This document shows positions 13,422 to 64,000 of a stretch of 64,000 nucleotides of DNA, piece by piece; position 1 is the stretch's first letter; every line of letters starts with the position of its first letter. The position numbers and the translations under genes were made by a program. The stretch comes from Chiloscyllium plagiosum (lineage: Eukaryota), in the NCBI RefSeq assembly GCF_004010195.1, contig NC_057718.1, forward strand, positions 8,021,552 to 8,085,551, given 5' to 3'. The notes beneath the pieces were generated by a model. It ran no database searches. It was not told the origin of the DNA and saw only the letters and a list, made by a program, of their open reading frames with translations.

Positions 13422-13921
13422 NNNNNNNNNNNNNNNNNNNNNNNNNNNNNNNNNNNNNNNNNNNNNNNNNNNNNNNNNNNNNNNNNNNNNNNNNNNNNNN
13501 NNNNNNNNNNNNNNNNNNNNNNNNNNNNNNNNNNNNNNNNNNNNNNNNNNNNNNNNNNNNNNNNNNNNNNNNNNNNNNNNNNNNNNNNNNNNNNNNNNNN
13601 NNNNNNNNNNNNNNNNNNNNNNNNNNNNNNNNNNNNNNNNNNNNNNNNNNNNNNNNNNNNNNNNNNNNNNNNNNNNNNNNNNNNNNNNNNNNNNNNNNNN
13701 NNNNNNNNNNNNNNNNNNNNNNNNNNNNNNNNNNNNNNNNNNNNNNNNNNNNNNNNNNNNNNNNNNNNNNNNNNNNNNNNNNNNNNNNNNNNNNNNNNNN
13801 NNNNNNNNNNNNNNNNNNNNNNNNNNNNNNNNNNNNNNNNNNNNNNNNNNNNNNNNNNNNNNNNNNNNNNNNNNNNNNNNNNNNNNNNNNNNNNNNNNNN
13901 NNNNNNNNNNNNNNNNNNNNN
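13422..13921. other. Assembly gap (500 N)
   Basis: Run of N. Confidence 1.
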
Positions 13922-32921: not shown

Positions 32922-33421
32922 NNNNNNNNNNNNNNNNNNNNNNNNNNNNNNNNNNNNNNNNNNNNNNNNNNNNNNNNNNNNNNNNNNNNNNNNNNNNNNN
33001 NNNNNNNNNNNNNNNNNNNNNNNNNNNNNNNNNNNNNNNNNNNNNNNNNNNNNNNNNNNNNNNNNNNNNNNNNNNNNNNNNNNNNNNNNNNNNNNNNNNN
33101 NNNNNNNNNNNNNNNNNNNNNNNNNNNNNNNNNNNNNNNNNNNNNNNNNNNNNNNNNNNNNNNNNNNNNNNNNNNNNNNNNNNNNNNNNNNNNNNNNNNN
33201 NNNNNNNNNNNNNNNNNNNNNNNNNNNNNNNNNNNNNNNNNNNNNNNNNNNNNNNNNNNNNNNNNNNNNNNNNNNNNNNNNNNNNNNNNNNNNNNNNNNN
33301 NNNNNNNNNNNNNNNNNNNNNNNNNNNNNNNNNNNNNNNNNNNNNNNNNNNNNNNNNNNNNNNNNNNNNNNNNNNNNNNNNNNNNNNNNNNNNNNNNNNN
33401 NNNNNNNNNNNNNNNNNNNNN
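32922..33421. other. Assembly gap (500 N)
   Basis: Run of N. Confidence 1.
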
Positions 33422-36377: not shown

Positions 36378-36466
36378 CCAGTTTGATATTCTTTGCTCCA
36401 GATCTGCTATGTTCATGTCCCCAATCTCATCATGGACCGTAAACTGCGTCATGTATAAAAGTCCCC
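36378..36466 (-). CDS. ADGRG6: GPR126-like exon: start of SEA domain (GLLYMTQFTVHDEIGDMNIADLEQRISNW), phase 1-0
   Basis: ttctcgccgcacag|GG...AACTGG|gtaagt; 89 nt; ends in the Trp seen at the equivalent GPR126 exon end. Confidence 0.85.
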
Positions 36467-38910
36467 CTGTGCGGCGAGAACAGAGAAATGTTATGACTCA
36501 TGTCACCTCCCACACCCTCCATCCTCAAAACACACGTGGCTTCCTAAGATCACGGAGAATAGCCATGATGGATATTCATTCTGAACCTGATTAGAGATTA
36601 GATTAGATTAGATTACTTACAGTGTGGAAACAGGCACTTCGGCCCAACAAGTCCACACCAACCCGCCGAAGCGCAACCCACCCAGACTCATTCCCCTACT
36701 AGTTGACAATTGGAGACTTAACAAATTCCTAAAGCCCCTCACAGTTTTTAACAGTGAGCAGGTTTCTGAGGAATCAGATATGATGAGAATTTCTCTTTCT
36801 AAACGTGACAAGTTATTGAAATTTGGAATAATCTGAAAAGGTGTACAGAGTCGAAACAACAGCAAACTCCAAAAGGGAGTCGGGAATAGAACCAAAAGTA
36901 AGAAATTTGTAAAGTGATTCAAAAAGAGGAGGGGAGTGGGATTAATTGGCTCACTCTTCCAAAGAGCTGGAATAGTCATGACGGGCTGAATGGCCTCCTC
37001 TGCGTCCTGTGGTTCGATCATTCAGAAGGTAAGCGTAGAGTGTGTGAGGTAGGAGCCAGTGGAACAGCTGGAGTTTAAGGTTGGATACAGTGGACCCGAC
37101 ACTATGTTGAGAAAAAAATGTACCTTCACAATGGACTTAAGGGATGGATGACAACCTAAAAAACAAATCTTATTTCTGACTCATCATCTGTGTTGGAATA
37201 CGGTTATTAATGTGTGAATGGATCTCTGATTCTCAAGTGTAGTTCTGTGAAATGCAGAATCCTGTAATTATAAGAGTGGTTTACTACAGACCAGGGGAAA
37301 CCTAAGTGACAAATGTGCAGACTTCATTGAGTGCTCTATATTGCTTGGCTCTCAGGAGGAAAGGAAGCAAAGAGGTAATCACCCTCTTTCACCCAGTTAC
37401 AAATGCTGGAAGTAGCATTGATCGGTTAGATCTCCTGCACACTCAACCCCAGTACTGACAGAAAAGCGAGTGCCACACAAGAACTGTGCAAGGGGTTAGT
37501 CCGCACAGTCCTCTCTAGATGGCGCCTTTCACATGGCTAATGGGGGCTGGTGCGTTACAATTAGAGGTGAACGATAAATCTTTGGATTGTGATTGTTTGC
37601 CGGAGATCGAGAGGGGGATGGAAATTAAACCACTTGATAGAAATAAATGAAGCACGTGGAATTAAGCCTCTCAGCAGAGAGAAAATTAAATGCCAGAGTA
37701 CAGTTTCGCTGACAATATTCCTCGTCCTAACTCTGCCTCAAACACGAGGCTGCAATTTATGGGGTGTTCTTTTGGGGCTGGGGAGGCTTTAGCCCCAGGG
37801 TTGTGCCAACTGCGCCACAGCTGGGTGTAAAACCACTCCCCATCTATTTCACACCAACAGGCAATGCTAAATACCACATGATCAGGAGGTTGGCAAGCTC
37901 GTTAACTGGTCTTTCCTAAAAGGAGTCCAGGCCTCCGATCTCTGTGGTCTCTTGCCCTCCGTAATTCCGAAGGTAGGCATCAGCAGGCCATGGTTTCTCT
38001 TTGTACACAAAGAGACTCGTGGTTAGCACCCGGAAAATCCAGCCCCCACTGTTCTGTAATCACACCAATCATAAAGATTGGTGTCGCATTTCATTGGAGA
38101 CAAACCACATCCAATGGACTCAAAGGGTTAACATACAAAGCATTGGGCGAAATTGGGTTGAAATTTTGGTGTTTGCAAACCGGACCTGACCAGAAGTTGA
38201 GGATGTGAACCATTTCAGTTGTTCTTCATTTTGCACATTCAACCAGTAAACACCACACTGCCATCTCAGTCCAGAGCAGGGCAGAATAATCTATAGCTAC
38301 AGTTAAGCAAAAACTGACAACTCTCTTCCTCCCCTTCATATGGAGCGTGTTCCACAGTGCCAGGTTTATAAACCCACAACATTCACAGTTGCAGTCATGC
38401 TTTGAAGTCTCTCCTTCCATGAGAAACAAACATTTCTGCTGGAGCCAATAAATCTTGAACCAAACTCCAGGAATGTGTTGCTCATCATAGAGAGAAACAG
38501 GTTGTTATTCATTAAAAGAGGAATTTCAATTTGCCATCCAGAAATTGCAAGAGTTTATTAAAAAATAAATAGTAACAGAATTATTTATTTTTGTGGCAGA
38601 GGGTAATGTCACTTTTTGCATGGCTACCCTTCAAGGGGAATGAACGTGTGGTAATTTGGTTCGGCTTTGGATGAATTTTTAATAGGAAAGTGATTTAATT
38701 ATCGCTGCTAATGCTATTCAGTAAGCTTTGCAAAAGGAAGGTATTCTATAACCACTAAGCTTCACTGCAATCAGCCATCTCCTCACATCATACTATCATC
38801 TAGAAGGTCTACAGATACAGCCCAGCATCTATGCAGGTGAGGCAACTATCAGCAGTGCTTTTCCGTGGTACACTCTGCTACAGATTTCTACAAGTGCAGC
38901 TAAGACATAC

Positions 38911-41900
38911 AGTTGGAGACCACTGGTCCACACAAGCGGCCTGTCCCATCAGCCTCTTCACCAATGCGGCACACGGAGGCTTGGTCAGGGGTGATGGATA
39001 GCTGCCCGCTCTCCAAGCTGGTGGGGAGAGCACCGCCAGGTCCATAAACCTCACGAGAGTGATCTGGAGGAGATGTCACAACAATGGGGGAGAAAGCAGC
39101 TGGAAGGTGTGAGAAATTTGTTGTGGAGGTTTGAGACAGTTGGCGCAGTGGATCAGAGACAGCATTCATCCATGTGTTGATGGCAAGGTCCCAGCTCAAT
39201 GGAGAAGGATGTACACCAATTGAGTAATCCCGGGAAGAGGCCATTGGTAATGTTGGCGCCAGTGTCAGGTCTTGAGTTTCACTACTTAACTGAGGAGGAT
39301 CTACTGGTATTCCTTCTCATAAAGACTATGAAATACTGAATGGGAGAGAGTACAAACTCTGAATATAAATGCTTGGCTCTTCACCAAAAGACTTGTGACC
39401 CTGCAATGCTCTTGCATGTTTCTGACTTGTTAAAATTATGCTGAAAAGTAGAGTTGGGAAGTCTAGTGTGGGTTGTATAAACCCACTGACCAATGTCTGT
39501 TCAAGTTCTGCCCCTGTAAAAATGTAATCTAGTTCCTCATGTTGGGGGGTTCTTGTTAGGAATGGGGTATGTGTACTGAACAAAGTCTTTTGTGGTCCCA
39601 AATGAACAGGCATCATAGTCATTGCCTGGACATCTTTAGACATTCCCAAAGCGGAATCTGAAAATGGTTCCCACTTCAATTCAGGATTCCAAGGATGGAG
39701 ACTCGCTTGATTGTCTATCCTATCTGGAGTGAAACCCAACAATGAATGCCATGCAGTTACATTATCTGCTGAGTCCTCGACTAACTGATGTCCAAGTTGG
39801 ACTTGCACTTCCTTCTTTGAAGGAGGGGTCACAAGTTTCTCCCCCATGTCAGAGCTGAAAGTCACAGTTGAAATTCCAATGGCATTGGAAACAATTCCCC
39901 AGTGGCTCTCAAATACTTCTGGAAATGTCAGAAAACCAGGAAAATATGTTCCATTTATAGGCCTGTGAGATGAATTTGACGTTAATGATAGTGTTTGTTC
40001 CAACTCAGAAAGATCGTCATGATGATGGGAATTTGAGTTCTCACTTCTTACAAATACAGATATATCTGAAGACATGGGCAGGAACATGACTGTTACCACT
40101 GGGGTCCAGTCCAAAGGGACAGTCCAGGTGCTCCCAATGTTTTTCATTGAGCTGTCCAAAGAAGACTTGAGGTAATCAGTTCCTGATGTGAAACCATTTC
40201 TCAGGCTAAGAGTCTCAAGGGTCAACTTGGTTGAGATGTGCAAGGGTGCAAGTGAAACCTCTTTGTTTCTGGCTCATGATCCTACATCATCTGGTATCAA
40301 TGTTTCCCATTTGTTTTCCATCACAAGAGGTGTACGCTGATGTCCTTGTGTTGTATGCAATGTGATATCAGTCAGTAAGATCAGATGATGGTCTTTGTCG
40401 GTGACAGGCAAAAAGTGAGGACTCACTTCTGTTGACAACCTCCACCAGGTGTCTGTACTCAGGAAAGTCTCTTTTGAGGGAGATAAGCTGTCTGTTTGTA
40501 GCTCAGAGGTTTCTCCCTTTCCTGATGCACCAGCCATCTCAACACATATGTGTGTGCCAGTTTGCAAGGTTATAGGATGAAGATTGACTGACCACGTTGG
40601 ACCTGAAATGGAGGGATGGACGCTGGACTCAAGTCTTTCCATTGCTAACATCTCTGTGTTGCATGGGGAATGGTTAACAGCATTGTTGAGTTTGGATGTA
40701 GACGCTGTTAGAGAATTACCCCAGAAATTTTCAGGTGTGGAAGGAATATTTACCATGTCGGGAATGAGTGGAGCTGTTAAAACATCTGGAAGGCTCAAGT
40801 TCTCATGTGACTGTATTGACATAACCAGAGAGTCTACACTTTGCATGAAGACAGGAATGTCATCTCCTTGTCCTCTTGCTGAAAGTTGGCCTGGAAACAT
40901 GATAAGCTCATCAGATTGCCTTAATTGATTTTTTAGCTCTTCTGTACTGATGAGCAACCTTTGGGTTGATGGTATAGACTCTCTGTTAAAGTGGTCTGTT
41001 AACTGGACAGAATTTGCAGTGCTTGGTGGTTGAGTGACAGTAAAGTTAATATTGATGCTTTCGAAGGTAGCCTTCGACATGATGGATTTTACATCCCCAA
41101 AATCAATGTCTCCCAGAATACGTAATGAAGGTGTCCAATTGTACAAGCTACTGATGCAGTGTGTTGATAAGGCACTGTTTGAAGACATAATTGCTAAATG
41201 GTGCTTGTGCAATGCTAGTTCCTGAGTACTCATAGGAGATCCAATGTCACCATGCAGGGATGATACTTCAGGCTCTATGTTAAACTGATCCCTTCAAGAC
41301 ACACGCACAGTGCTTAAAGGGTTTCCTATCCGGCTTGAACTATTAGTCATCTTCGAGAATGAACCAGTTAATAAGTGTCTGTATGATGCAACAGTTGTTG
41401 GCAAGCTGACTACCTGCATTGTTGGAGTAAACCTAATTGTTGAATCTAAAACTAAAAGTGGGGTTTGGGAACGTATCTCCAGTGATTCCACCAGAACAGA
41501 CGACCCGGCATTGATAATGCGCTGACCTGGCAATACCACAGAAGATACAGTCCCACTGTTCACTAACGCTCCCATTCCAGCATCAACTCCAACTCCAGCC
41601 GTCGAAACCTTGTGATTTTCAAGATCAGTGGATGGCCTCTCAAACCTGGAGACTGGCTCACTGCCCAGGGTTGTTACATTGTGAGTAGAGTTCCCAGACT
41701 GGTTTGTCAATTTCTTTGACCAGGCGATGACTTCAGAATTCTTTTGAAAGGGGTTTGGCTCTTTGTTGGCTGGGCTTCTCTTTTCACCTTTGGTCAATTG
41801 TTCCAACTTTGTGACACCTTGTGGCCTCTTGGTTACAGCCTTATAGAAGACAATAGGTGCCCCATGTGTGTTCAGTATCGCTGGCCTCAGAACACTGGGT

Positions 41901-42069
41901 ACATTGGGTCTCAGTGGGTACCTCAGTGGCGTGGAGATGATACCCAATGGGTGCCTGGGCCTTCTCGTCCTCTGTTCTGCTTTTGAGGTAGAATGATGCC
42001 ACACTTCTGGGAGGACAACTGGGGTCAGTATCTGGAATCCCTGCAAATCTGAATCATTAAGGCTTCCTG
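38911..42069 (-). pseudogene. Giant mucin-like S/T/P-rich exon (1053 codons, phase 1-1) with four in-frame stop codons; decayed cassette exon or alternative terminal exon
   Basis: ORFs 41294-42046, 40274-41233, 39326-40243 and 38900-39244 are all in one frame. Acceptor tttgccctctaacag|CA at 42069, donor TCCAACT|gtatgt at 38911. Stops: TGA 41294-41296, TGA 40274-40276, TAG 39326-39328, TGA 39317-39319. Confidence 0.7.
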
Positions 42070-42163
42070 CTGTTAGAGGGCAAAGTATCCCATCATTATC
42101 TTGTCACATTAACTTCAATAAACCACCACCCCCACCAATCCATAATGGTACTGAACAATGTCA

Positions 42164-42290
42164 GTTCTGAAGAAGGGCTTATGCCCGAAACGTCGATTCT
42201 CCTGTTCCCTGGATGCTGCCTGACCTGCTGCGCTTTTCCAGCAACACATTTCCAGCTCTGATCTCCAGCATCTGCAGACCTCACTTTCTC
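42164..42290 (+). mobile_element. Short Penelope-derived element with minimal hammerhead motif and 13-bp TSD
   Basis: TSD ctgaacaatgtca at 42151-42163 and 42291-42303; ctgaagaagggcttatgcccgaaacgtc at 42167. Confidence 0.9.
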
Positions 42291-43186
42291 CTGAACAATG
42301 TCAACACAAGGATTCTTGGGAGCAAGCTGCTTTGGCCCAATAATTTGAGACTTACGAGAAAAAGCAAAAAGGATAAAAATAGTTTGGTTCATTTGAACAG
42401 GAAAAGACAGAAACTGAGTTGATAAAACTGTATAAAATCTAAAACTTCACTAATCTCAAACAATAATGCAGAAATATAAAGGGGATTTGAATATTCATGG
42501 CTGTGCCCAAAGGGAGATTCTCCAGGTTCCCTTGCAGTTTCACTCATTGGGAGAATTAGTGATACAATGCTGTAAAATACATGGTCTAATTCTCTCATGA
42601 CACTCTCCTGTCTGTACCCCAATAATGCTGTTGCGTAAGTAAAAGCTAGTTAAATGGTGACCATATAACCGATGTAGATTGTCGCAAAATCTCATCACAT
42701 TTACTAATGTTGTTCAGTGTGGGAAACCGCCATCCTTACCTGGTCTGATTCACGTTACTCCAGTCCCACAGCATTGGAGTTGACTCCCAGCTGCTCTTCA
42801 AAATGGCCTAGAGAGCCTATTAATTCAAGAGTAACTAGGAATGGGCAAAAAATATTGGCCTTGCCTATGATACCCCTATCCCATACAAGAATAATAAAAT
42901 AAAGAGATGCACTGTAGGACATATAATCATTAGTAGCTCAACCAGCGGACAAGGTCTTCAGGAAAACAAGGGAGAGATACCTTTTGTTTAAAGGAAATTT
43001 GAACAACTTTGCAATTATTGGAGCAGGGAGGAAGATCCATTTAGAAAACCTCTTTACCTTCCCTTTCACCACTGCATGATCAATGAATAGAATTTAAAAG
43101 ATAGATATAACGCATGTCAGCCCTCAAATTCCCCATTCCTTATCAGCTGTGTTAATGGCAGTGCTGCAGCTAAAAACAGCTCAATA

Positions 43187-46492: not shown

Positions 46493-46719
46493 CCCTTTCT
46501 TTTGTGTAACCATTTTAAGTCGCTGCATCACAAAAGATTCATCAACTCCTTTTTATTCCAAGAACATTGCTGCTTTAAATCTGTGTTTGTATTCCTTTCG
46601 GTCTGATTCGTCAACTCCCTCCAGCTTCATTCGTATAGCACCTACCTATACCCTCATACTGAAGAACATTTTAGGTGTTCCTTCTCTAACTTTACTGTTT
46701 GAAGAATTGCCGGTGTTGT

Positions 46720-49700
46720 TTTGGGACTTCTCATTATTTGTCTGACTGGGGCTGCGCTTCTCATTGTTTGTCTGACTGGGACTGCACTTCTCATTGTTTG
46801 TCTGACTGGGACTGCGCTTCTCATTGTTTGTCTGACTGGGACTGCGCTTCTCATTGTTTGTCTGACTGGGACTGCGCTTCTCATTGTTTGTCTGACTGGG
46901 ACTGCGCTTCTCATTGTTTGTCTGACTGGGACTGCGCTTCTCATTGTTTGTCTGACTGGGACTGCGCTTCTCATTGTTTGTCTGACTGGGACTGCGCTTC
47001 TCATTGTTTGTCTGACTGGGACTGCGCTTCTCATTGTTTGTCTGACTGGGACTGCGCTTCTCATTGTTTGTCTGACTGGGACTGCGCTTCTCATTGTTTG
47101 TCTGACTGGGACTGCGCTTCTCATTGTTTGTCTGACTGGGACTGCGCTTCTCATTGTTTGTCTGACTGGGACTGCGCTTCTCATTGTTTGTCTGACTGGG
47201 ACTGCGCTTCTCATTGTTTGTCTGACTGGGACTGCGCTTCTCATTGTTTGTCTGACTGGGACTGCGCTTCTCATTGTTTGTCTGACTGGGACTGCGCTTC
47301 TCATTGTTTGTCTGACTGGGACTGCGCTTCTCATTGTTTGTCTGACTGGGACTGCGCTTCTCATTGTTTGTCTGACTGGGACTGCGCTTCTCATTGTTTG
47401 TCTGACTGGGACTGCGCTTCTCATTGTTTGTCTGACTGGGACTGCGCTTCTCATTGTTTGTCTGACTGGGACTGCGCTTCTCATTGTTTGTCTGACTGGG
47501 ACTGCGCTTCTCATTGTTTGTCTGACTGGGACTGCGCTTCTCATTGTTTGTCTGACTGGGACTGCGCTTCTCATTGTTTGTCTGACTGGGACTGCGCTTC
47601 TCATTGTTTGTCTGACTGGGACTGCGCTTCTCATTGTTTGTCTGACTGGGACTGCGCTTCTCATTGTTTGTCTGACTGGGACTGCGCTTCTCATTGTTTG
47701 TCTGACTGGGACAGCGTTTCTCATTGTTTGTCTGACTGGGACTGTGCTTCTCATTGTTTGTCTGACTGGGACTGCACTTCTCATTGTTTGTCTGACTGGG
47801 ACTGTGCTTCTCATTGTTTGTCTGACTGGGACTGCACTTCTCATTGTTTGTCTGACTGGGACTGCACTACTCATTGTTTGTCTGACTGGGACTGCGCGAC
47901 TCATTGTTTGACTGGGACGGCGCTTCTCATTGTTTGTCTGATTGGGACTGCACTTCTCATTGTTTGTCTGACTGGGACTGCGCTTCTCATTGTATGTCTG
48001 ACTGGGACTGCGCTACTCATTGTTTGTCTGACTGGGACTGCGTTTCTCATTGTTTGACTGGGACTGCGCTTCTCATTCTTCATCCGACTGGGACTGCGCT
48101 ACTCATTGTCTGACTGGGACGACGCTTCTCATTGTTTGACTGACTTGGACGGCGTTTCTCATTGTTTGTCTGATTGGGACTGTGTTTCTCATTGTTTGTC
48201 TGACTGCGATGGCATTTCTCATTGTTTGTCTGACTGGGACTGCACTTCTCATTGTTTGACTGGGATGGTGTCTCTCATTGTTTATCTGACTGGGACTGCG
48301 CTTCTCATTGTTTGTCTGACTGGGACTGCGCTTCTCATTGTTTGTCTGATTGGGACTGCGCTACTCATTGTTTGTCTGACTGGGACTGCGCTTCCCATTG
48401 TTTGTCTGACTGGGAGTGCACTACTCATTATTTGTCAGACTGGGACGGCGCTTCTCATTGTCTGACTGGGACTGCGCTTCTCATTGTTTGCCTGACTGGA
48501 ACGGCGCTTCTCATTGTTTGTCTGACTGGGACGGCACTTCTCATTGTTTGTCTGACTGGGACTGCGCTACTCATTGTTTGACTGGGAAGGCGCTTCTCAT
48601 TGTTTGTCTGACTGGGACTGCGCTACTCATTGTTTGACTGGGACGGCGCTACTCATTGTTTGGCTGACTGGGACTGCGCTACTCATTGTTTGACTGGGAC
48701 TGCACTACTCATTGTTTGTCTGACTGGGACGGCGCTACTCATTGTTTGTCTGACTGGGACTGCGTTTCTCATTGTTTGTCTGACTGGGAAGGCGTTTCTC
48801 ATTGTTTCTCTGACTGGGACTGCGCTACTCATTGTTTGTCTGACTGGGACTGCACTACTCATTGTTTGTCTGACTGGGACGGCGCTTCTCATTGTTTGAC
48901 TGGGACGGCGCTTCTCATTGTTTGTCTGACTGGGACAGCGCTTCTCATTGTCTGACTGGGACGGCGCTTCTCATTGTTTGTCTGACTGGGACGACGCTTC
49001 TCATTGTTTGTCTGACTGGGACGGCGCTACTCATTGTTTGTCTGACCGGGACGGCGCTTCTCATTGTTTGTCTGACTGGGTCTGCGCTTCTCATTGTTTG
49101 TCTGACTGGGACGGCGCTTCTCATTGTTTGTCTGACTGGAACGGCGCTTCTCATTGTCTGACTGGGACTGCGCTACTCAATGTTTGTCTGACTGGGACTG
49201 CGCTTCTCATTGTTTGTCTGACTGGGACGGCGCTTCTCATTGTTTGTCTGACTGGGACGGCGCTTCTCATTGTTTGCCTGACTGGAACGGCGCTTCTCAT
49301 TGTTTGTCTGACTGGGACTGCGCTACTCATTATTTGTCTGACTGGGACGGCGCTTCTCATTGTCTGACTGGGACGGCGCTTCTCATTGTTTTTCTGACTA
49401 GAACGGCGCTTCTCGTTGTTTGTCTGACTGGGACGGCACTTCTCATTGTTTGTCTGACTGGGACTGCGCTACTCATTGTTTGACTGGGACGGCGCTACTC
49501 ATTGTTTGTCTGACTGGGACTGCACTACTCATTGTTTGTCTGACTGGGACGGCGCTACTCATTGTTTGTCTGACTGGGACTGCGTTTCTCATTGTTTGTC
49601 TGACTGGGAAGGCGTTTCTCATTGTTTGTCTGACTGGGACTGCGCTACTCATTGTTTGTCTGACTGGGACTGCACTACTCATTGTTTGTCTGACTGGGAC

Positions 49701-50234
49701 GGCACTTCTCATTGTTTGACTGGGATGGCGCTTCTCATTATTTGTCTGACTGGGACAGCGCTTCTCATTGTCTGACTGGGACGGCGCTTCTCATTGTTTG
49801 TCTGACTGGGACGGCGCTTCTCATTGTTTGTCTGACTGGGATGGCGCTACTCATTGTTTGTCTGACTGGGACTGCGCTACACATTGTTTGTCTGATTGGG
49901 ACTGCACTTATCATTGTTTGTCTGACTGGGACTGTGCTTCTCATTGTTTGTCTGACTGGGACTGCGCTTCTCATTGTTTGTCTGACTGGGACGGCGCTTC
50001 TCATTGTTTGACTGACTGGGACTGCGCTACTCATTATTTGTCTGACTGGGACGGCGCTTCTCATTGTTTGTCTGACTGGAACGGCGCTTCTCATTGTCTG
50101 ACTGGGACTGCACTACTCAATGTTTGTCTGACTGGGACTGCGCTTCTCATTGTTTGTCTGACTGGAACGGCGCTTCTCATTGTTTGTCTGACTGGGACTG
50201 CGCTACTCATTATTTGACTGGGACTGCGTTTCTC
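46720..50234. repeat. 30-bp minisatellite array, at least 3.5 kb, running into the gap
   Basis: Unit tctgactgggactgcgcttctcattgtttg; perfect from about 46790 to 47710, then variant 30-bp and 26-bp units. Confidence 0.98.
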
Positions 50235-50734
50235 NNNNNNNNNNNNNNNNNNNNNNNNNNNNNNNNNNNNNNNNNNNNNNNNNNNNNNNNNNNNNNNNNN
50301 NNNNNNNNNNNNNNNNNNNNNNNNNNNNNNNNNNNNNNNNNNNNNNNNNNNNNNNNNNNNNNNNNNNNNNNNNNNNNNNNNNNNNNNNNNNNNNNNNNNN
50401 NNNNNNNNNNNNNNNNNNNNNNNNNNNNNNNNNNNNNNNNNNNNNNNNNNNNNNNNNNNNNNNNNNNNNNNNNNNNNNNNNNNNNNNNNNNNNNNNNNNN
50501 NNNNNNNNNNNNNNNNNNNNNNNNNNNNNNNNNNNNNNNNNNNNNNNNNNNNNNNNNNNNNNNNNNNNNNNNNNNNNNNNNNNNNNNNNNNNNNNNNNNN
50601 NNNNNNNNNNNNNNNNNNNNNNNNNNNNNNNNNNNNNNNNNNNNNNNNNNNNNNNNNNNNNNNNNNNNNNNNNNNNNNNNNNNNNNNNNNNNNNNNNNNN
50701 NNNNNNNNNNNNNNNNNNNNNNNNNNNNNNNNNN
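50235..50734. other. Assembly gap (500 N)
   Basis: Run of N. Confidence 1.
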
Positions 50735-51197: not shown

Positions 51198-51257
51198 TGG
51201 GTGCCGCAGGTTCTGTCGTTCCTGGCGATGTGATTTCCGAGAGTGGAGGGTTTGTGC
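51198..51257 (-). CDS. ADGRG6: GPR126-like S/T/P-rich linker exon (TNPPLSEITSPGTTEPAAP), phase 1-1
   Basis: ttgcttgcatcacaaag|GC...GCACCCA|gtaagt; 60 nt, symmetric, consensus donor. Confidence 0.68.
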
Positions 51258-53324
51258 CTTTGTGATGCAAGCAAATGTAAAATATTGAACACACGGCTTC
51301 CAAAAACGAGACTCTGTCCCCTTCCCACTAATCCTCAAACCCCTTGAACCATGAAGCAGTGAAATGTTACTGGATAGCATCTTGGCTGTGATTACTGTTC
51401 CCTGGTGAATCTAGTATTTACTCAATAGCAATAAACACTTTCACTGTCAGCAACATGGTTATCAACTGGTGCTCTCTGATGGTGACTCTGTGAAATTGTC
51501 CATTTTTAACCTCTGACCTTTGACCCATGGTCCTGTGCACTACCCAGGCATTGTGGAGATAAGATGGCAGGAAGGAATGACACAGTCCCTGGGGCAGTGA
51601 CTCAACCAAGTGATGTGCGGATGTACATTCAACAGCCTGATGGGCAACATCAAAAGAAAAATGGAAATGATTGGCTCCAATTTCTTCATTTAAAGAGTCT
51701 TGAGATGCTAAGGGAGACCTCTTAACATGTTAAGCAGCCTCCAAAGGCTGTGACCTCAGAGTTCTCAGGTGTAGCAGTTCTGTGACATTGTCTGTGAGAG
51801 GTGTTTGCTGTCTCCCCCCGCAGAGGGAGGCATTGCCTCGTTCACTTAAACCCAGAGGAGGAAACTTCAGATTCTCGATTTCGCAAAGGAAACTCCCCCT
51901 GGGTTTTTTTTAAAAACGGATTTGTAGAGCCGCCTGTCCATCTGGGATTCTCCCAATGGCTTGTAGAAAAATGGTTTCCCTCGCTCTACCAGAGGATACT
52001 CAAGCAAGCAAGGAGTCACCCATTGAAGGCCGAGATGAGGAATGTTTTCCTCTCATTCTCCCCCGCAGATGGCTGTTGAGTTGGGGTCACTGAGGATACT
52101 CAAGGCTGAGGTTGACAGATTTCAAAAGGGCATCAGGGATTAGGAGGATAAGGTAGGAAAGTGGAGTTGATGATTATCAGATCAGCCATTGAACGACGGA
52201 CTTGACTCAATGGGCTGAATAGCCTACTTCTACTCCTGTGCCTGTGGTTCAATTGACTTAAGCAATCATTCATTCAGAGCATATTAGGGAGCTACAAATT
52301 TCCATAGTTTGATCTGCTCTTTGGTTCCACAAAAGCCCATTCGAATTATACACTCACAAAAACTCACAGCACAGACAGAGGCCATTCGGCCTCTCACAGT
52401 TGTTTTAGAGCAAAAAAATCACGACCCGTTATCCAGTTCAGGAAATTTAAATCACCCTCTCTCCCAATAAGGAAGATTTTCCCCTTTGCAATCCTCTTTA
52501 AACTCAACTGTATACAGAAACTATTCTATCAGGAAACTCCTCTGGGTTTTTTTAAAAGACGGATTTGTAGAGCTGCCTGTCCATCTGGGATTCTCCCAAT
52601 GGCTCCACATCACACATTACAATATACAGTTAGAGAGTCATAATGGCTTGGATAGAGGCCATTCACTCCATTGAGACAGTACAAGAGTATTTCTGTATTA
52701 CTGCGTACTATAATTGCATATTGTAAAGCTTATATGTTACCTTGTTGTAACATGCCATAATATGCCAAACTATGGTGTATCATATATCACAAATAATTAT
52801 TTAAGAATTTATGCAGTGGAAGTCCATTATAAAGCAGGTATTGGGACCTGAAAAATGAAACAATTTTGAACTAGAAAAATGAAGATTGAAATAAAGATTG
52901 ACCTTTTCTGGGAGGGGCTCATGAAACCTCCACACTTTAAATAAATTTGTAATGCATTGATTCATAATGGATTCCACTATATAACAGCCCAATTGGATTT
53001 AATATATTTTTTGTGCAAAATGATATTCTAGTTTCGTAAGTGTCAAATAATTTTCATTTGACGACTGCATATGTTTTCTTTTGGCATTTTCTATCATAAA
53101 TAACTATGTGCTCATTTATAAAGGGAGCTGTATATATAAACATGACACACTGTCATTGAACCCTTCTCTTGGTAGATGAACTGCAACACCACCAGTGGTA
53201 GGAGGGTATCATTACACCACAACATCCTTACCACAGCTTTCCCCATAACAACTGTGCACAGAGTAATTGATAACTTGAGATATCTCAAAATAATAACAAA
53301 ATGAGTAAAACAAGGTTTGCTTAC

Positions 53325-53399
53325 CAGCAGTGGAGGGCTCAGGGCTGTTAGTACCATGCGTGTTAGTGATACTAGTGCTGAAATGGGATGGTGTGGTCA
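53325..53399 (-). CDS. ADGRG6: GPR126-like S/T-rich linker exon (TTPSHFSTSITNTHGTNSPEPSTA), phase 1-1
   Basis: tcttccttatcttgttaccag|TG...ACTGCTG|gtaagc; 75 nt, symmetric, mucin-like composition. Confidence 0.72.
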
Positions 53400-53689
53400 C
53401 TGGTAACAAGATAAGGAAGAAACATGCAGGTGGCTGCAGGTTAGTTCAGGCGAAATGAAGGAGTTTGTCATTGCACACCACGACTGACAGAACTCATAAT
53501 CAATCATCATCAAAAAGTACAATACCTCCCTTTGCCCCATAAACGTTGCTATTTCATACAGATTATGGATTTGGCCATTGTGAGCCATTCAGGTTGGCCT
53601 TGTTCCAGTGGGAGCAATGTCCCCCCCCCTGAGTTTGGATGGTTGTGCTGCTCTTGAATACGTAATCTAAGCTGACACTTCAGTGCAGC

Positions 53690-53992
53690 AGTCATAGAGT
53701 CATAGAGATGTACAGCACTGAAACAGACCCTTTGGTCCAACCTGTCCATGGCGACCAGATATCCCAACCCAATCTAATCCCACCCAGTCCATATCCCTCC
53801 AAACCCTTCCTATTCATATACCCATCCAGATGCCTTTTAAATGTTGCAATTGTACCAGTCTCCACCACTTCCGCTGGCAACTCATTCCATACACGTACCA
53901 CTCTCTGTGTGAAAAAGCTGCCCCTTTTATATCTTTCCTTCTCACTCTAAACCAAAGCCCTCTAGTTCTGGACTCCCTCACCCCAGGGAAAA
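53690..53992 (-). mobile_element. CR1 LINE 3' fragment
   Basis: VRVWNELPAEVVETGTIATFKRHLDGYM; gtcatagagtcataga tail. Confidence 0.9.
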
Positions 53993-54183
53993 TGACTTTG
54001 TCATCACAGAGTGCTGGGCTGTTGGAGGTGTGAACTATTAAATGCAACACTCAAAGGAGACCAAGTGACAGATATGTATAACTCCACAGTTTTACATATC
54101 AGCAAAGTGCTTCTTGAAGGGTGTTAAAGCAAGTCAGTTTGATTTTGGGACAAGCTCATGGCATACTGGATCAGATGACCTTT

Positions 54184-54499
54184 GGGCGGCACGGTGGCAC
54201 AGTGGTTAGCACTGCTGCCTCACAGCGCCAGAGACCTGGGTTCAATTCCTGCCTCAGGCGACTGACTGTGTGGAGTTTGCACGTTCTCCCCGTGTCTGCG
54301 TGGGTTTCCTCCGGGTGCTCTGGTTTCCTCCCAGAGTCCAAAGATGTGCAGGTCAGGTGAATTGGCCATGCTAAATTGCCCACACTGTTAGGTAAGGGGT
54401 AAAATGTAGGGGTATGGGTGGGTTGCGCTTCGGCGGGTCGGTGTGGACTTGTTGGGCCAACGGGCCTGTTTCCACACTGTAATGTAATCTAATCTAATC
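54184..54499 (+). mobile_element. HE1-like tRNA-derived V-SINE, near full length
   Basis: A box tggcacagtgg, B box ggttcaattcc, V-domain and (taatc)n tail; a matching tail fragment lies on the minus strand at about 36590-36700. Confidence 0.93.
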
Positions 54500-55979
54500 A
54501 TCAGGGTTTGAACTTTAGCCCTCAGGAAACTGGGTTCAGTGCAATAACATTCACCATCAGAACTCATTGACCTATGGAACCCTGAGGTAAACAGTGGCAC
54601 ATTTGGACCCCAACCCAAATCCAGCTATCGCCTCTTCCACCCAGCCTTACTTTTTCCCAATCTTACTGGCTCCACAACAGGAAACTGACCATCCTAACCT
54701 CGGTTAACCCCCGTATAAAGCCAGTCTTACACTGAGGTCCTCTACAACGGCCAGTCCATTGGATCAAACAATTCAAACCCACCTCTCCCTTTTCAATGGC
54801 AAACTAGGGGGTGGCTAACAAATGCCAGCCTTACCAGAAATGCAAGAATAAAAACTTGCCAGTGTGAGTGAGATCCCTTTCTTCATTTATTTCTGTTTCT
54901 AAACAGAAGTATTAGATAATAAGGACAGCTTACAGGACAGCGTAATTGCCTCTGAGCCAGGCCCTCGGGGACCCTAACATACTCCAGGTGGGCCAGGAAA
55001 TTCATACATAACACAGCCAAGCAAGCTGGTTATCCACCTGTAAATCCTTCCAACACACGCCAATAGCAGGTGAGAGAGATCCCTGGTCAACCATGTGCTG
55101 GGGAGAAACTTGAAGCTTCGACCATCACCCTGGGTCACAAAGTGTTCGTTAAAAAGTAAACATTACCTCAGCAACTTGGACTCCCTGAATGAACGATAAC
55201 ACATTCATACCTCCTAGCAGTAAGGTGTTGCATGTCCAATACAAACTTTCCAATTACTCCTTAGCCCCATACAACTTCCCCTCCTCAACTATTTCCCCAG
55301 CCCCAAAACCCTCTGAGCTGTTTACCATGTGCTAAGTCTTGCCTGTGCATTATCACCAATTTTTCAACAGTTCCAACATTCACATACAGAGGTCCTAAAC
55401 TCTGGAATTCTAAGCTTCTCCAATTCTCTACTTCACTGTTCTCTTTTAGGACAGTTCTTAGAACCCACCTCTGGGACCAAGCTCCTGGCCAGTGGTCAGA
55501 AAACATGACTTGGTATCAAATTTTGTTTGGTAACGTTCCCACAGTAGACCTTGGGGATGTTTTGTTCCACCATGTGTAAAATATAAGATATGGGTGTTGT
55601 TGTTGTACTGGTTTTGTTACAAAGCAGAGTTTCTGCCAGTGGGCAAGGATTTTTACCTCGCCTCTGGAACCCCAGTTAAGATTTAAGTCGATCGAGAGGG
55701 GAATGAAAAGATGGCTCTCAAAGAGTTGACGACAATCAGCAGCAAGAGATCTATTGAACATATTTAAGGTCATAAAGAGATTCATTTCTGCTTTCAGTGA
55801 TACATTTTACTTTCCTGTGTACCTGCCAGTTTAAAAGGATTAAAAATTTATGTCAATAGTGGCAACTGCTCAGAATACCAAGAGGAATTTGCAAAGGTAA
55901 GGAGTGAAATCCAACTATCTTGTTTGGACAAATGCTTCTTTCTCAAACAACTCCTCCAGTAGCCTGGTTGGTCTAATGA

Positions 55980-58060
55980 CAAGGCATTGATGAGACCGCA
56001 CTTGGAGTATTGCACAGCTTTGGTCCTGTTCCTTGAGGAAGGATATAATTGCATTGGAGGCAGTTCAAAGAAGATTCATGAGATTAATTCCAGAGATGAA
56101 AGGCTTGGTTTAGGAAGAGAGATTGAGCAGTTTAGACCAATACTCTCTGGAGTTTAGGAGAATGAGTGGGAGGTTTAATTGAAGTATATAACATGCCAAA
56201 GGGAATTGACACAGTAGATGGAGATTGCATGTGGGGCAATTTAGAATGAGAAGTCATAGCTTTCGGATAAGGGGTAGCAGATTTAAAAGAGATAAGGGGA
56301 AATTACTTCTCTCAAAGGGTAGTGAATCTGTGGAATTCACTCCCCTAGAATGTGGTGGATGCTGGGATTAAATTTAAGATTCTTCATGAGTAATGGGTAG
56401 AAGGGTTATGGGGAGTGGGTAGGAAAATGGAGTTGTGGCGAAGATGAGATCAGCCATGATATCAGAGCAGGGTAGAAGGGCTGAATGGACTACTCCTGCT
56501 CTGAGTTCTAATGTTCCAGCTTTCCTGTCACACCTATTTGGTGATAAGATGTCAGCTAAACCTCGTAATCACGATGGTTTAGTGGCTGATTGACCTCCTC
56601 TGATACATTGTTTGATTTGAACCATTAGTCATTCGCTCAACAAGACAGGGCAGCAGCCAGGCTGCCGAACAATGCCCGTGCATACAATGGCCTCATGTCA
56701 ATCGGACCACAGGGGAAAATACACAGACAGCGACAACACAAAGAGACAAGGCTTTTAACTACCTCAGGCCGTGGGCTACTCACTGGGACCGCTGCCAAGA
56801 CAGAGACAGAAAGCAAGCAATGTTTGTAGGAGAGTCACTAAAATCTGGCCAACAATTAACTTGTTGTAATTCTGAGCTGGTTGTTTTTACCTCCCAATTG
56901 ACCATGCAACCCCCCTCCCCTCCCTGTTCAGACATCGACCAATGTTGTGCTAGTAACAATTTTATCACAAACCTCAATAAAATGTGTGCATTTTACTGAG
57001 CGGTTTCTATAGAAAGTGTGTGTGCTTACTGTATAAAACCTTGGTGAATACAAGACCACCAATGTACTGCTGAGGCTGTATAAGGCCGCATTTGGAATAT
57101 TGTGAGCAGTTTTGGTGCCCCGTATCTAAGGTAGAATGTATTGGCTTTGGGGGGAGTCCAGAGGTTTACAATAATGATCCTGAGGATGAAGGGCTTACCA
57201 TATTAGGAGTGTTTGAGGAGTTTGGGTCTGTACTCAATGGAGTATAGAAAGATGAGGGGAGGTCTGATTGAAACTTACAGAATACTACAAGACCGGGATA
57301 GAGTGGACGCGAAGTAGGAGAGACTAGGACGAGAGAGCACAGCGTCAGAGTGAAGGGATGGCCTTTCAAACAAAGATGAGGAGCAATTTCTTCAGCCAGA
57401 TAGTGGTGAATCTGTGGAACTCATTGCTGTTTGGTAAGGGGATCAAAGGTTATGAGGAGAAGGCAATTGAATGAGCTGAGAAACATATCAACCGTGATTA
57501 AGTGATGGAGGAGACTCAATGGGCCGAATGGCCTAATTCTGCTCCTATATCTTCTGGTGAGATTGGAGCATTGTTCACCTTAACTAAGGAGGGATATGCT
57601 TGTCAGACAGAGAGTCCAACAGATGTTCCCCAAATTAATCCTCAGAATGGTGGGATTGTCTTATGAGGGGAGTTTGAGGAAACTGGGTGGGTCTTCCCTG
57701 GTGTTTCAATGAGGGACGAATGGCATGAATAGAGTGGAAAGTATGAGGCTTCTTCCCAGACTGGAGGGGTCAATTATTCAGGGACACAGGTTAAGGATGT
57801 GGGGTGGGAGAATGTTTAAAACAGATGTACGAAGCAAATTTTCCACAAAGGATGGTGAGTGCCTGGAGCATTCTGCCAGAGGTGGTGATGGAAACTGACT
57901 CAATAGCAGCATTTAAGAAGCACCTGGACGGATACACGAACAGGAAGGGAATAGAGGGATGAGGATCCTGTAAGTGAAGGAAGTTTCTGTATGGTAGGGC
58001 AAAATGTGTTGGCACAGGTTTGGAGGGATGAACGGCCTGTTCCTGTGCCGAATTGTTATT
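55980..58060 (+). mobile_element. Cluster of three old CR1 3' fragments (about 55980-56515, 57060-57560 and 57590-58060) separated by unique sequence
   Basis: Repeated remnants of RPHLEYC..FW, DLIE.Y.I and FFSQRVVNLWNSL with CR1-type tails. Confidence 0.78.
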
Positions 58061-59460
58061 TTTTCTTTGCAATATGAAACTTATTTTAACAATCAGATGA
58101 ATTTTGTTGGGCATGTTTGAGATCTGACTAACCTCTCACCTCACAAAGCTCAATAGCGTTGTTGTGAGGCAGTGGTACTGTCCCTACTTCTAGGCCAGTA
58201 AATTCTGAGTTCAAGGCCATTTGTCCCTCAAGGTGCGTCTGAAGATGTCCAAACAAGTTTATTCAAATAAACAAATATTCTTAACCAAACTTTTGATAAA
58301 AGCAAAAACTGAAAGAACTGCAGATGTTGTAAATCAAAAGTAAAAACAGAAATTGCTGGAAAAGTTCAGTACGTCTGGCAACACCTTTGGAGAGAAATCA
58401 GAGTCAATGTTTGGGTCAAGTGACTCTTCATCAGAACTCTTAGGGTTAAGGTTTATAAAAGCTCATGTTTAGGTAGGCTACACTAACCTTATCAGTCTAT
58501 TTCCTAACTATATTTGATCAAATTGTGAACAGAAATCATAGAATTTTAGTGTTAAGCTCAAAAAGAACATTTTTCTTTCTCAGATACTGTGGAAATTCAA
58601 GATAGCTGTCTCTCACAGAGTTGACAAGAAGCAAGATGGCCTCCTTCTTTGAAGTAACATTCGGTGGAATTTTTTTTTTGTTTGATGAATTTCCCTTTGA
58701 AAAGCTAGTCTGGGTTGTTCTACCAAGATTTTCCGGTCATTGGTATTCCTCGTTAAGAGCCGATCATGTTAAATGAAAGGCTGTTTATGCTTGTTTTCTC
58801 TAGAGAAAGGTTTGGAATTTCTGGAATCTTCTGACACCCTGCTTATGTGTAAGTTTAAACGCAACAACAAGAATACGCTACAAATAGAAGGTGGAAGAAA
58901 TGCGAACATCATGCAAATTGAAAGAACTGAGTTAAAATTGTTTCCAGAGTTTAGTTTTGACAGCATGTAGATTGAAAGACTTTTCCAAGAGCTTACGATC
59001 CTTTCTCTCTTTCTCTGTTATTCCCCCTCCCTTCCTCCTGGGAATCCTGCCCTCAAACATCCAAACTGTCCCAGAACCAGGAAATAGCTAGAATCGTGGA
59101 ACTGCCACTTCAAACACCAAATCTCTGCTCAGCTCCTCCTCTTCTCAGTGTTTAGGCACTCCTACTGGAAACAGGTTAAACGATTCTCGATTGAGTGCAC
59201 GGTTTACCCTGAGTTTCCCGATCGAGGTTTGACATTGCTTTGAGTAATAGCTGCTGGAGAACATCCATAATTGGGGCTTTCACCGACACTTTCATTCGTC
59301 AGTGAGACCCAGGTATCCTTGGATACTCTTAGCTAACCTAAAGAGCAGTGGGACCCAGTTGAAAATCTGTCCTATTAAAATAAAAGATGATATTAAGAAA
59401 AGCAGTACAGACCGTGATGGCTAATTTGTCACAGTCTGACAACACTGCTCTTGGCCCTAC

Positions 59461-59529
59461 CTTGACAGCCAGAACCTGGAGTTGAACAGTAGGTGGGTTT
59501 GATGGTCATCTGGGTAGGTGAGGCAGTAG
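59461..59529 (-). CDS. ADGRG6: GPR126-like exon: post-pentraxin linker (TASPTQMTIKPTYCSTPGSGCQ), phase 1-1
   Basis: ctcactttcacag|CT...TGTCAAG|gtaggg; 69 nt and open. The C-x6-C-Q ending resembles the GPR126 exon that follows the pentraxin domain. Confidence 0.75.
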
Positions 59530-63685: not shown

Positions 63686-64000
63686 AGAGTCATAGAGATG
63701 TACAATACGGAAACAGACCCTTTGGTCCAACCCATCTATGCCAACCAGATATCCTAACCTAATCAAGTCCCATTTGCCAACACTTGGCCCATATCCCTCC
63801 AAATCCTTCCTGTTCATGTACCCATCCAGGTGCCTTTTAAATGTTGCAATTGTACCAGCCTCCACCAATTCCTCTGGCAATTCATTCCACACATGCACCA
63901 CCCCTCTGCATGAAAATGTTGCCCCATAGGTTCCTTTTATATCTTTCCCCTCTCACCTTAAACCTATGCCCTCTAGTTCTGGACTCCCCCTCCTCAGGGA
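63686..64000 (-). mobile_element. CR1 LINE 3' fragment
   Basis: VHVWNELPEELVEAGTIATFKRHLDGYM. Confidence 0.9.

Follow-up and report, generated by a model that had tools for sequence, protein, structure and literature searches.

A giant linker exon of shark ADGRG6/GPR126 that is probably in an early stage of neutral decay

The analysis of a 64-kb stretch of shark DNA (hereafter the window) points to a giant exon of ADGRG6/GPR126, situated in the regulatory PTX-SEA linker, whose reading frame is interrupted by four stop codons. We favor, at a probability of roughly 0.78, the neutral decay of a skipped cassette exon that began about 4% (1-10%) sequence divergence ago. Specifically, an ancestral giant spacer exon of this linker would be in an early stage of neutral decay: this shark lineage would have ceased to need the long isoform, the exon would be mostly skipped, and stops and indels would then build up freely, independently by haplotype and species; transcripts that still include it would be removed by NMD or would end in the intron, as noise without selective value. 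Because the exon is symmetric, its skipping keeps the reading frame from the small linker exons into the SEA exon. The ortholog in the outgroup is open, and the lesions comprise four stops in the window, two frameshifts in a second individual (run X1) and one in organism C (run X16). Overall, the open skate ortholog, the independent frameshifts and the open neighboring exons support the initial suggestion that a symmetric, skippable exon was lost recently from an otherwise intact gene. Annotators should accordingly be cautious, as the ADGRG6 gene here is not a pseudogene.

The giant exon occupies positions 42069-38911 on the minus strand (3159 nt, AG...GT, phase 1-1), a length divisible by 3 that yields 1052 whole codons, and has the composition of a mucin-like cassette (22% Ser+Thr, 13 N-glycosylation sequons), now disabled. 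Its coding frame holds 4 stops against 67 and 54 in the non-coding frames, and 500 shuffles of the exon gave a mean of 56 stops per frame with a minimum of 28; it is therefore a real, almost open frame and a coding relic. One tblastn alignment (E 3e-74) pairs residues 444-1523 of skate ADGRG6 with 42070-38912 at 29.7% identity, without a change of frame and with in-frame length differences between the two. The best 50-residue windows score up to 109 in the coding frame and no more than 34 in either other frame, which gives no sign of a compensated frameshift. Moreover, when the exon was read through with its stops as X, the sole match in a HMMER scan of 1.84 billion representatives was a skate ADGRG6, namely isoform X10 of the thorny skate (2374 aa), which carries CUB, pentraxin, SEA, GPS and 7TM domains. 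Pfam returned nothing relevant on pieces of the giant exon and the flanking frames.

The gene around the exon is readily recognized. Fifteen exon matches follow Mustelus ADGRG6 in order (50-93% identity), the SEA, HormR/GAIN, GPS and 7TM exons lie in gene order in the window with best similarity to ADGRG6, and the top PDB match of a GAIN exon is 6V55 Gpr126. These other exons are closer to shark than to skate ADGRG6. The 14 others that were tabulated are open, as are two more judged by eye; the first SEA-domain exon, downstream of the giant exon (36378..36466, minus strand), is likewise open. CUB and pentraxin exons, whose domains the skate ortholog has, were not found within the 64-kb window and presumably lie beyond position 64000. 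Three expected short ADGRG6 exons were also not found in the window, and a 500-N assembly gap falls in the interval of each (13422-13921, 32922-33421 and 50235-50734).

The nearest linker exon found upstream of the giant exon is 60 nt long (51198..51257, minus strand), and two further ones on the same strand occupy 53399-53325 and 59529-59461, of which the former is likely, by position and composition, the counterpart of the "exon 6" splice insert. Several such small Ser/Thr-rich linker exons occur in sharks (in the window, 51198-59529), and they are tandemly repeated in proteins of Carcharodon, Cetorhinus, Mustelus and Pristiophorus (P0006, P0007, P0132, P0144), which is another route to a longer linker. 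The intron upstream of the giant exon also holds a tandem repeat with a 30-nt unit (about 3.6 kb, ~46650-50230) that has long open frames and stops at the assembly gap, and a SINE copy, one of many in the window, lies at 42160-42292, about 90 nt upstream of the giant exon acceptor.

All four stops of the initial annotation were confirmed in one minus-strand frame that is open in between: stop 1, TGA at 41294..41296 (exon codon 258); stop 2, TGA at 40274..40276 (codon 598); stop 3, TAG at 39326..39328 (codon 914); and stop 4, TGA at 39317..39319 (codon 917). Four of the 24 runs listed were compared with the window: X1, with the same species label; X8 and X18, taken as RNA by guess only; and X16, from organism C. 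Run X1 gives a single contig over 36670-42140 with 15 differences, of which 12 were located, none at a stop; no change is listed at stop 1 or stop 2, and differences exclusive to X1 were located at other positions. Judging from the ranking of the differences, a fixed sense codon at a stop in X1 would probably have shown. In run X18, record 21 (39140-39393) departs from the window once, at 39307, and is identical to it at stops 3 and 4; run X8 covers these two stops as well and shows two differences, one of which lies elsewhere. The four stops thus look real and not like sequence errors, with independent support for stops 1 and 2 coming from X1 alone. Stop read-through or selenocysteine was dismissed, given the mixture of TGA and TAG and the additional frameshifts. 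As to the runs themselves, X18 differs from the window in 3 of about 1320 aligned letters although it is labelled organism B, whereas DNA runs labelled organism B contain about one-quarter of the words, and the label of X18 may therefore be a mismatch.

The second part of the initial description, that the exon carries no indels, holds for frameshifts in the assembled haplotype but fails in another individual and in organism C. Run X1 has a 25-nt frameshifting deletion at 41679..41703 (exon codons 122-130), which is flanked by a 4-base TTGT microhomology and precedes stop 1, and a 1-nt frameshifting deletion at 40116 (codon 651), while organism C has a 1-nt deletion at 39108 (codon 987); each of these is based on one contig at a depth of 11-14. 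Both X1 deletions are absent from X16 and the window, and the X16 deletion is absent from X1 and X8. In its other two exon contigs, X16 has gap letters as well, 2 in one (net 0) and 12 in the other (net -12); the indels given here come from 12 of 21 indel rows. The absence of frameshifts is hence a property of the assembled haplotype. The probability of four stops before any frameshift is 0.34, 0.07 and 0.014 at 0.01, 0.03 and 0.06 frameshifts per substitution, assuming that about 3% of substitutions make a stop and with the rate of 0.06 estimated from intron rows and the lower values from exon rows of the run comparison. The apparent puzzle of stops without indels is thus true of the window haplotype, which is somewhat unusual in this respect, but amounts to only a modest fluctuation (P ~0.01-0.3, depending on the indel rate).

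Both splice sites of the giant exon score below the other sites of the gene. The acceptor is a tandem AG (NAGNAG; 42067..42071, minus strand) with 12 of 20 pyrimidines, compared with 13-17 in 15 other exons scored, and skate isoforms X2 and X10 show a one-residue difference at the same acceptor junction. The donor, ACT|GTATGT (38905..38913, minus strand), scores 3.5, below the 15 leave-one-out donor scores of the gene (4.1-11.1), on a rough matrix derived from the donors of the window itself. The ends of the encoded insert differ in their state of preservation. The conserved N-terminal motif GIISTPLRYP (41915..41944, minus strand) is intact, matching the G[IF]IS[TR]P[LI] pattern of 20 of 20 long vertebrate forms, and is preceded by a basic RTRR stretch (41960..41971, minus strand) that is putatively furin-like by the furin consensus; basic stretches are similarly placed in skate, bird and lungfish forms. 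The C-terminal cysteine motif (38930..38968, minus strand) is degenerate: the skate register C-x-C-x7-C-x-C reads R-x-G-x7-R-x-C, so that three of the four conserved cysteines are lost, although a cysteine one residue before the motif permits a second register with two lost. Each lost cysteine codon (CGC, GGT, CGC) is one base from a cysteine codon. Among the long forms, C-x7/8-C-x-C is found in 19 of 20, and the first cysteine in 16 of those 19.

To judge the age of the exon, long ADGRG6 proteins of other vertebrates were considered. Of the 453 matches to the skate protein, the best 120 include 22 that are longer than 2000 aa and 27 with G[IF]IS[TR]P. Twenty long forms, drawn from skates, teleosts, lungfish, a frog, reptiles and birds, were compared: the N-terminal motif opens the insert in all 20 and the cysteine motif closes it in 19, while the middle keeps length and composition only. 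Long isoforms include Amblyraja XP_032881912.1, Leucoraja XP_055495127.1 and Danio XP_073788884.1, together with forms from Protopterus, Ascaphus, Anolis and birds; all of them are automatically annotated models. The linker insert of about 1000 residues is annotated in zebrafish (P0103/P0172, with an isoform of 2212-2223 aa), lungfish (P0069), tailed frog (P0012) and anole (P0097), and again in birds (P0013, P0065) and skates (P0002, P0159). This distribution suggests that the giant exon is as old as the jawed vertebrates. Between two skates it is as well preserved as the rest of the protein (95.6% identity inside, 94.6% outside), and in skate isoform X10 (P0002) a locally repeated stretch of the giant region is about 107 residues shorter than in X2 (P0003).

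The annotated isoforms of sharks give a different picture. None of 40 isoforms (1240-1424 aa) from Mustelus, Carcharodon, Cetorhinus, Heterodontus and Pristiophorus contains the giant exon or its motif (for Mustelus, 15 of the 20 members are covered), and skipping therefore appears to be the norm in sharks. All 17 skate sequences contain the exon, in a search that admitted only proteins of at least 1305 aa and to which short skate forms were thus invisible. Recent decay leaves two observations unexplained, namely the absence from the five shark genera and the loss of cysteines, which is too complete for 3-7% decay (a post hoc calculation for three of four lost gives P = 0.001 if divergence is 3% and P = 0.012 if it is 7%). 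The cysteine loss exceeds what the number of stops predicts; it may be older than the loss of the frame, or a feature of sharks in general. Together with the lack of annotated inclusion in five shark genera, it hints at an older stage of reduced use in which the frame was kept, or at repeated loss.

The divergence data bear on both the timing and the selective regime of the exon. Between the window and organism C, 99 of 2549 exon letters differ (3.9%), compared with an estimated 110 of 2237 intron letters (4.9%; count obtained by subtraction). The exon thus diverges at 79% of the intronic level (Fisher P = 0.09), with an implied omega of about 0.7 (0.44-1.05). In near-identical runs, the seven listed variable exon sites comprise five missense and two silent changes, where the neutral prediction is 29% silent. 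Identity to skate is the same before stop 1 (89/245, 36%) and after it (264/722, 37%; P = 1.0), a comparison with low power for a recent event. An open exon may also evolve fast: between falcon and crow, the bird exon retains 70% identity versus 93-96% for the rest of the protein, and near-neutral protein evolution therefore does not prove that an exon is dead.

To accumulate four stops takes about 126 substitutions (34-321), or 4.0% (1.1-10.2%) divergence, and divergence since the split from organism C is about 2.5% per lineage; some of the stops may therefore be common to organism C, for which 40 of 263 difference rows were covered. On these estimates, the decay would have set in about 4% (1-10%) of neutral divergence ago, a depth comparable to that of the separation from organism C and far more recent than the divergence from other shark orders. 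An ancient, shark-wide loss was rejected, since 20% decay predicts about 18-20 stops and loss in the shark ancestor about 14-20, against the 4 found; here the other exons, about 80% identical to Mustelus, imply at least ~14% neutral change per lineage under an assumed omega of at most 0.35. The only shark rate met was 7e-10 per generation, for another shark, in the available part of PMC10587355.

The pattern of contigs in the putative RNA runs was also investigated. Runs X8 and X18 cover the SEA exon (36456) and not the intron positions 36522-36571, as in spliced mRNA, and both give short contigs across the giant exon and its downstream intron alike; an X18 contig (41875-42124) runs unspliced across the giant exon acceptor by 55 letters. 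None of the nine joints listed links the giant exon donor to the SEA acceptor, a count that is uninformative because X8 and X18 are almost without cover at the donor and that comes from joint and loose-end tables dominated by repeat noise from a short SINE piece at 36.6 kb. As contig depth is no measure of inclusion, this pattern is compatible with skipping but does not demonstrate it, nor can it separate skipping from inclusion followed by NMD.

The three scenarios initially offered for the stops (decay, a poison exon or a secreted product) missed a fourth, in which the 5' part of the exon is kept as a smaller exon through an internal donor, the GIISTP motif persists in an intact membrane receptor and the 3' part decays. 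Comparable intermediate isoforms that leave the exon internally are found in four birds (P0026, P0028, P0031, P0121) and one characin (P0098, Salminus): they use only the first 240-300 codons, exit about 200-255 residues past the motif, at an identical point in the four birds, and place the GIISTP motif adjoining SEA. In the window, the best frame-keeping candidate donor before stop 1 is CAG|GTCAGC (41521..41529, minus strand; cut at 41527), which would yield a 181-codon exon and scores 6.2, inside the range of the true donors, although decoy sites in introns score as high as 8.0 when a similar matrix is used. The N-terminal motif is intact, and every stop and lost cysteine is found downstream of 41527, but the chance of all four stops falling past codon 181 is about 0.47, and the motif is missing from the 40 shark isoforms above. 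Moreover, the 25-nt deletion of X1 would frameshift this form and is the sole allele there (depth 14.3 of 14.3, with 84% of the run read). We therefore regard such a short receptor as improbable.

We see a similarly small chance for a secreted isoform, in which inclusion, read-through of the weak donor and cleavage at an intronic poly(A) site would turn the giant exon into a last exon, escape junction-dependent NMD and produce a soluble CUB-PTX-linker-tail protein. Soluble N-termini made by splicing are described as common among adhesion GPCRs in the parts available of PMC6667449 and PMC11039983, and the former predicts them for 55.6% of those in mouse; the Gpr126 row is nevertheless unmarked under soluble NTF in its table. 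The donor is indeed weak and is followed by AATAAA at 38589 and 38559 and ATTAAA at 38699 and 38683, against an AATAAA background of 0.43 per kb in the window. The specific proposal of a secreted form with 258 new residues is contradicted by the X1 deletion in codons 122-130, which cuts the new tail at about codon 123, so that it is not intact up to a fixed stop in all individuals. In addition, no matching protein of 586-1868 aa was found, and the sole match among the 1.84 billion representatives is the skate protein, a weak argument given that shark coverage is incomplete and that a word-based search with the read-through exon also returned no protein of 1869-5000 aa, a range in which the skate ortholog falls. 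The equal identity to skate before and after stop 1 likewise speaks against a selected tail, with the low power stated above.

A stop upstream of later exon junctions triggers NMD, and stop 1, at codon 258, lies far upstream of the junctions of at least 13 exons downstream in the window, so that inclusion of the giant exon would trigger it. We nonetheless judge it very improbable that this old coding exon was recruited as a regulatory poison exon to lower ADGRG6 mRNA. Further frameshifts would be harmless to such a role, and regulated NMD is called a viable explanation for ancient exons in the accessible portion of PMC2697156; the same source, however, states that purifying selection tends to act on them, and poison exons are described as highly conserved in the corresponding portion of PMC11357089. 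Strong conservation is not what we find, with divergence at 79% of the intronic level, indels, and the weakest splice sites of the gene. An NMD poison exon may thus apply as a passive by-product only, one that lacks the conservation typical of regulatory poison exons. Finally, assembly or sequencing errors in an intact exon are hardly credible: 3 of the 15 X1 differences were not located and stops 1 and 2 depend on X1, but the 12 located X1 differences miss all four stops, X18 record 21 matches the window at stops 3 and 4, and X1 has frameshifts of its own.

Returning to the neutral decay of a skipped exon, its broader meaning lies in the linker concerned. A spliced exon of 23-28 residues in the PTX-SEA linker acts as a closed/open switch of the ectodomain and alters signaling; the exon 6 insert (+ss/S1 vs -ss/S2) opens the ectodomain and raises cAMP signaling (PMC6954182, PMC11475505 and PMC12684940, as far as their available text goes), and 23 residues suffice to open it (PMC6954182, same limit). 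In that available text, these exon 6 papers describe no such giant exon, and PMC13197933 and PMC8584163 are silent on a large GPR126 exon in theirs. Papers on a large GPR126 exon were not found in a literature search ("adgrg6" + "giant exon" = 0) whose scope excluded supplements, including the alignments of PMC6954182, and most subscription papers. An insert of 1000 residues is annotated in zebrafish, the main model, as well as in skates, lungfish, frog, reptiles and birds, in a linker where 23 residues tune signaling. A lineage in which this exon is dying would indicate that one vertebrate or more can do without the long form, and the resulting pattern of presence and absence is testable.

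Most likely, the stops themselves represent ordinary exon decay, in an exon that is ancestral and little noticed. More speculatively, and with odds that we consider clearly against it, jawed-vertebrate GPR126 may have an ancestral long-stalk isoform in which about 1000 glycosylated residues between GIISTP and a four-cysteine motif by SEA hold CUB-PTX far from HormR. Sharks would have silenced it early with the frame kept, the cysteines would have been lost first, the exon would now be disappearing lineage by lineage, and its 5' motif may persist here in a short or secreted product. If true, nature would have provided, in this shark, a knockout of a myelination receptor isoform that is unstudied.

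Comparison with known systems places the exon more precisely. The long ADGRG6 isoforms of the databases have an orthologous exon at the same position, with about 1000 residues, 21-27% Ser+Thr and both end motifs, but are open, whereas the exon in the window has four stops and a broken cysteine motif. The exon 6 insert shares the PTX-SEA linker, the Ser/Thr-rich composition and the frame-preserving cassette structure; it is functional and only 23-28 residues long, in contrast to a giant exon of about 1050 residues that lies behind the small linker exons, has end motifs of its own and is disabled here. ADGRG4/GPR112 is a paralog with a very long, Ser/Thr-rich, mucin-like stalk behind its pentraxin domain, and the likeness to the giant exon (long, Ser/Thr-rich, behind a pentraxin domain) is one of description only. 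With the poison exons of SR-protein genes, the exon shares the premature stop that inclusion would bring upstream of junctions, but unlike them it is not ultraconserved, originates from a coding exon and resides in a host that is not a splicing regulator. The closest parallel is the lineage-specific decay of cassette exons (pseudoexon, unitary exon loss), with which it shares a symmetric, skippable exon, weak splice sites, independent lesions and an intact host gene; compared with other decayed cassette exons, this one is unusually large and was caught at an early point, when individuals still differ in their new frameshifts.
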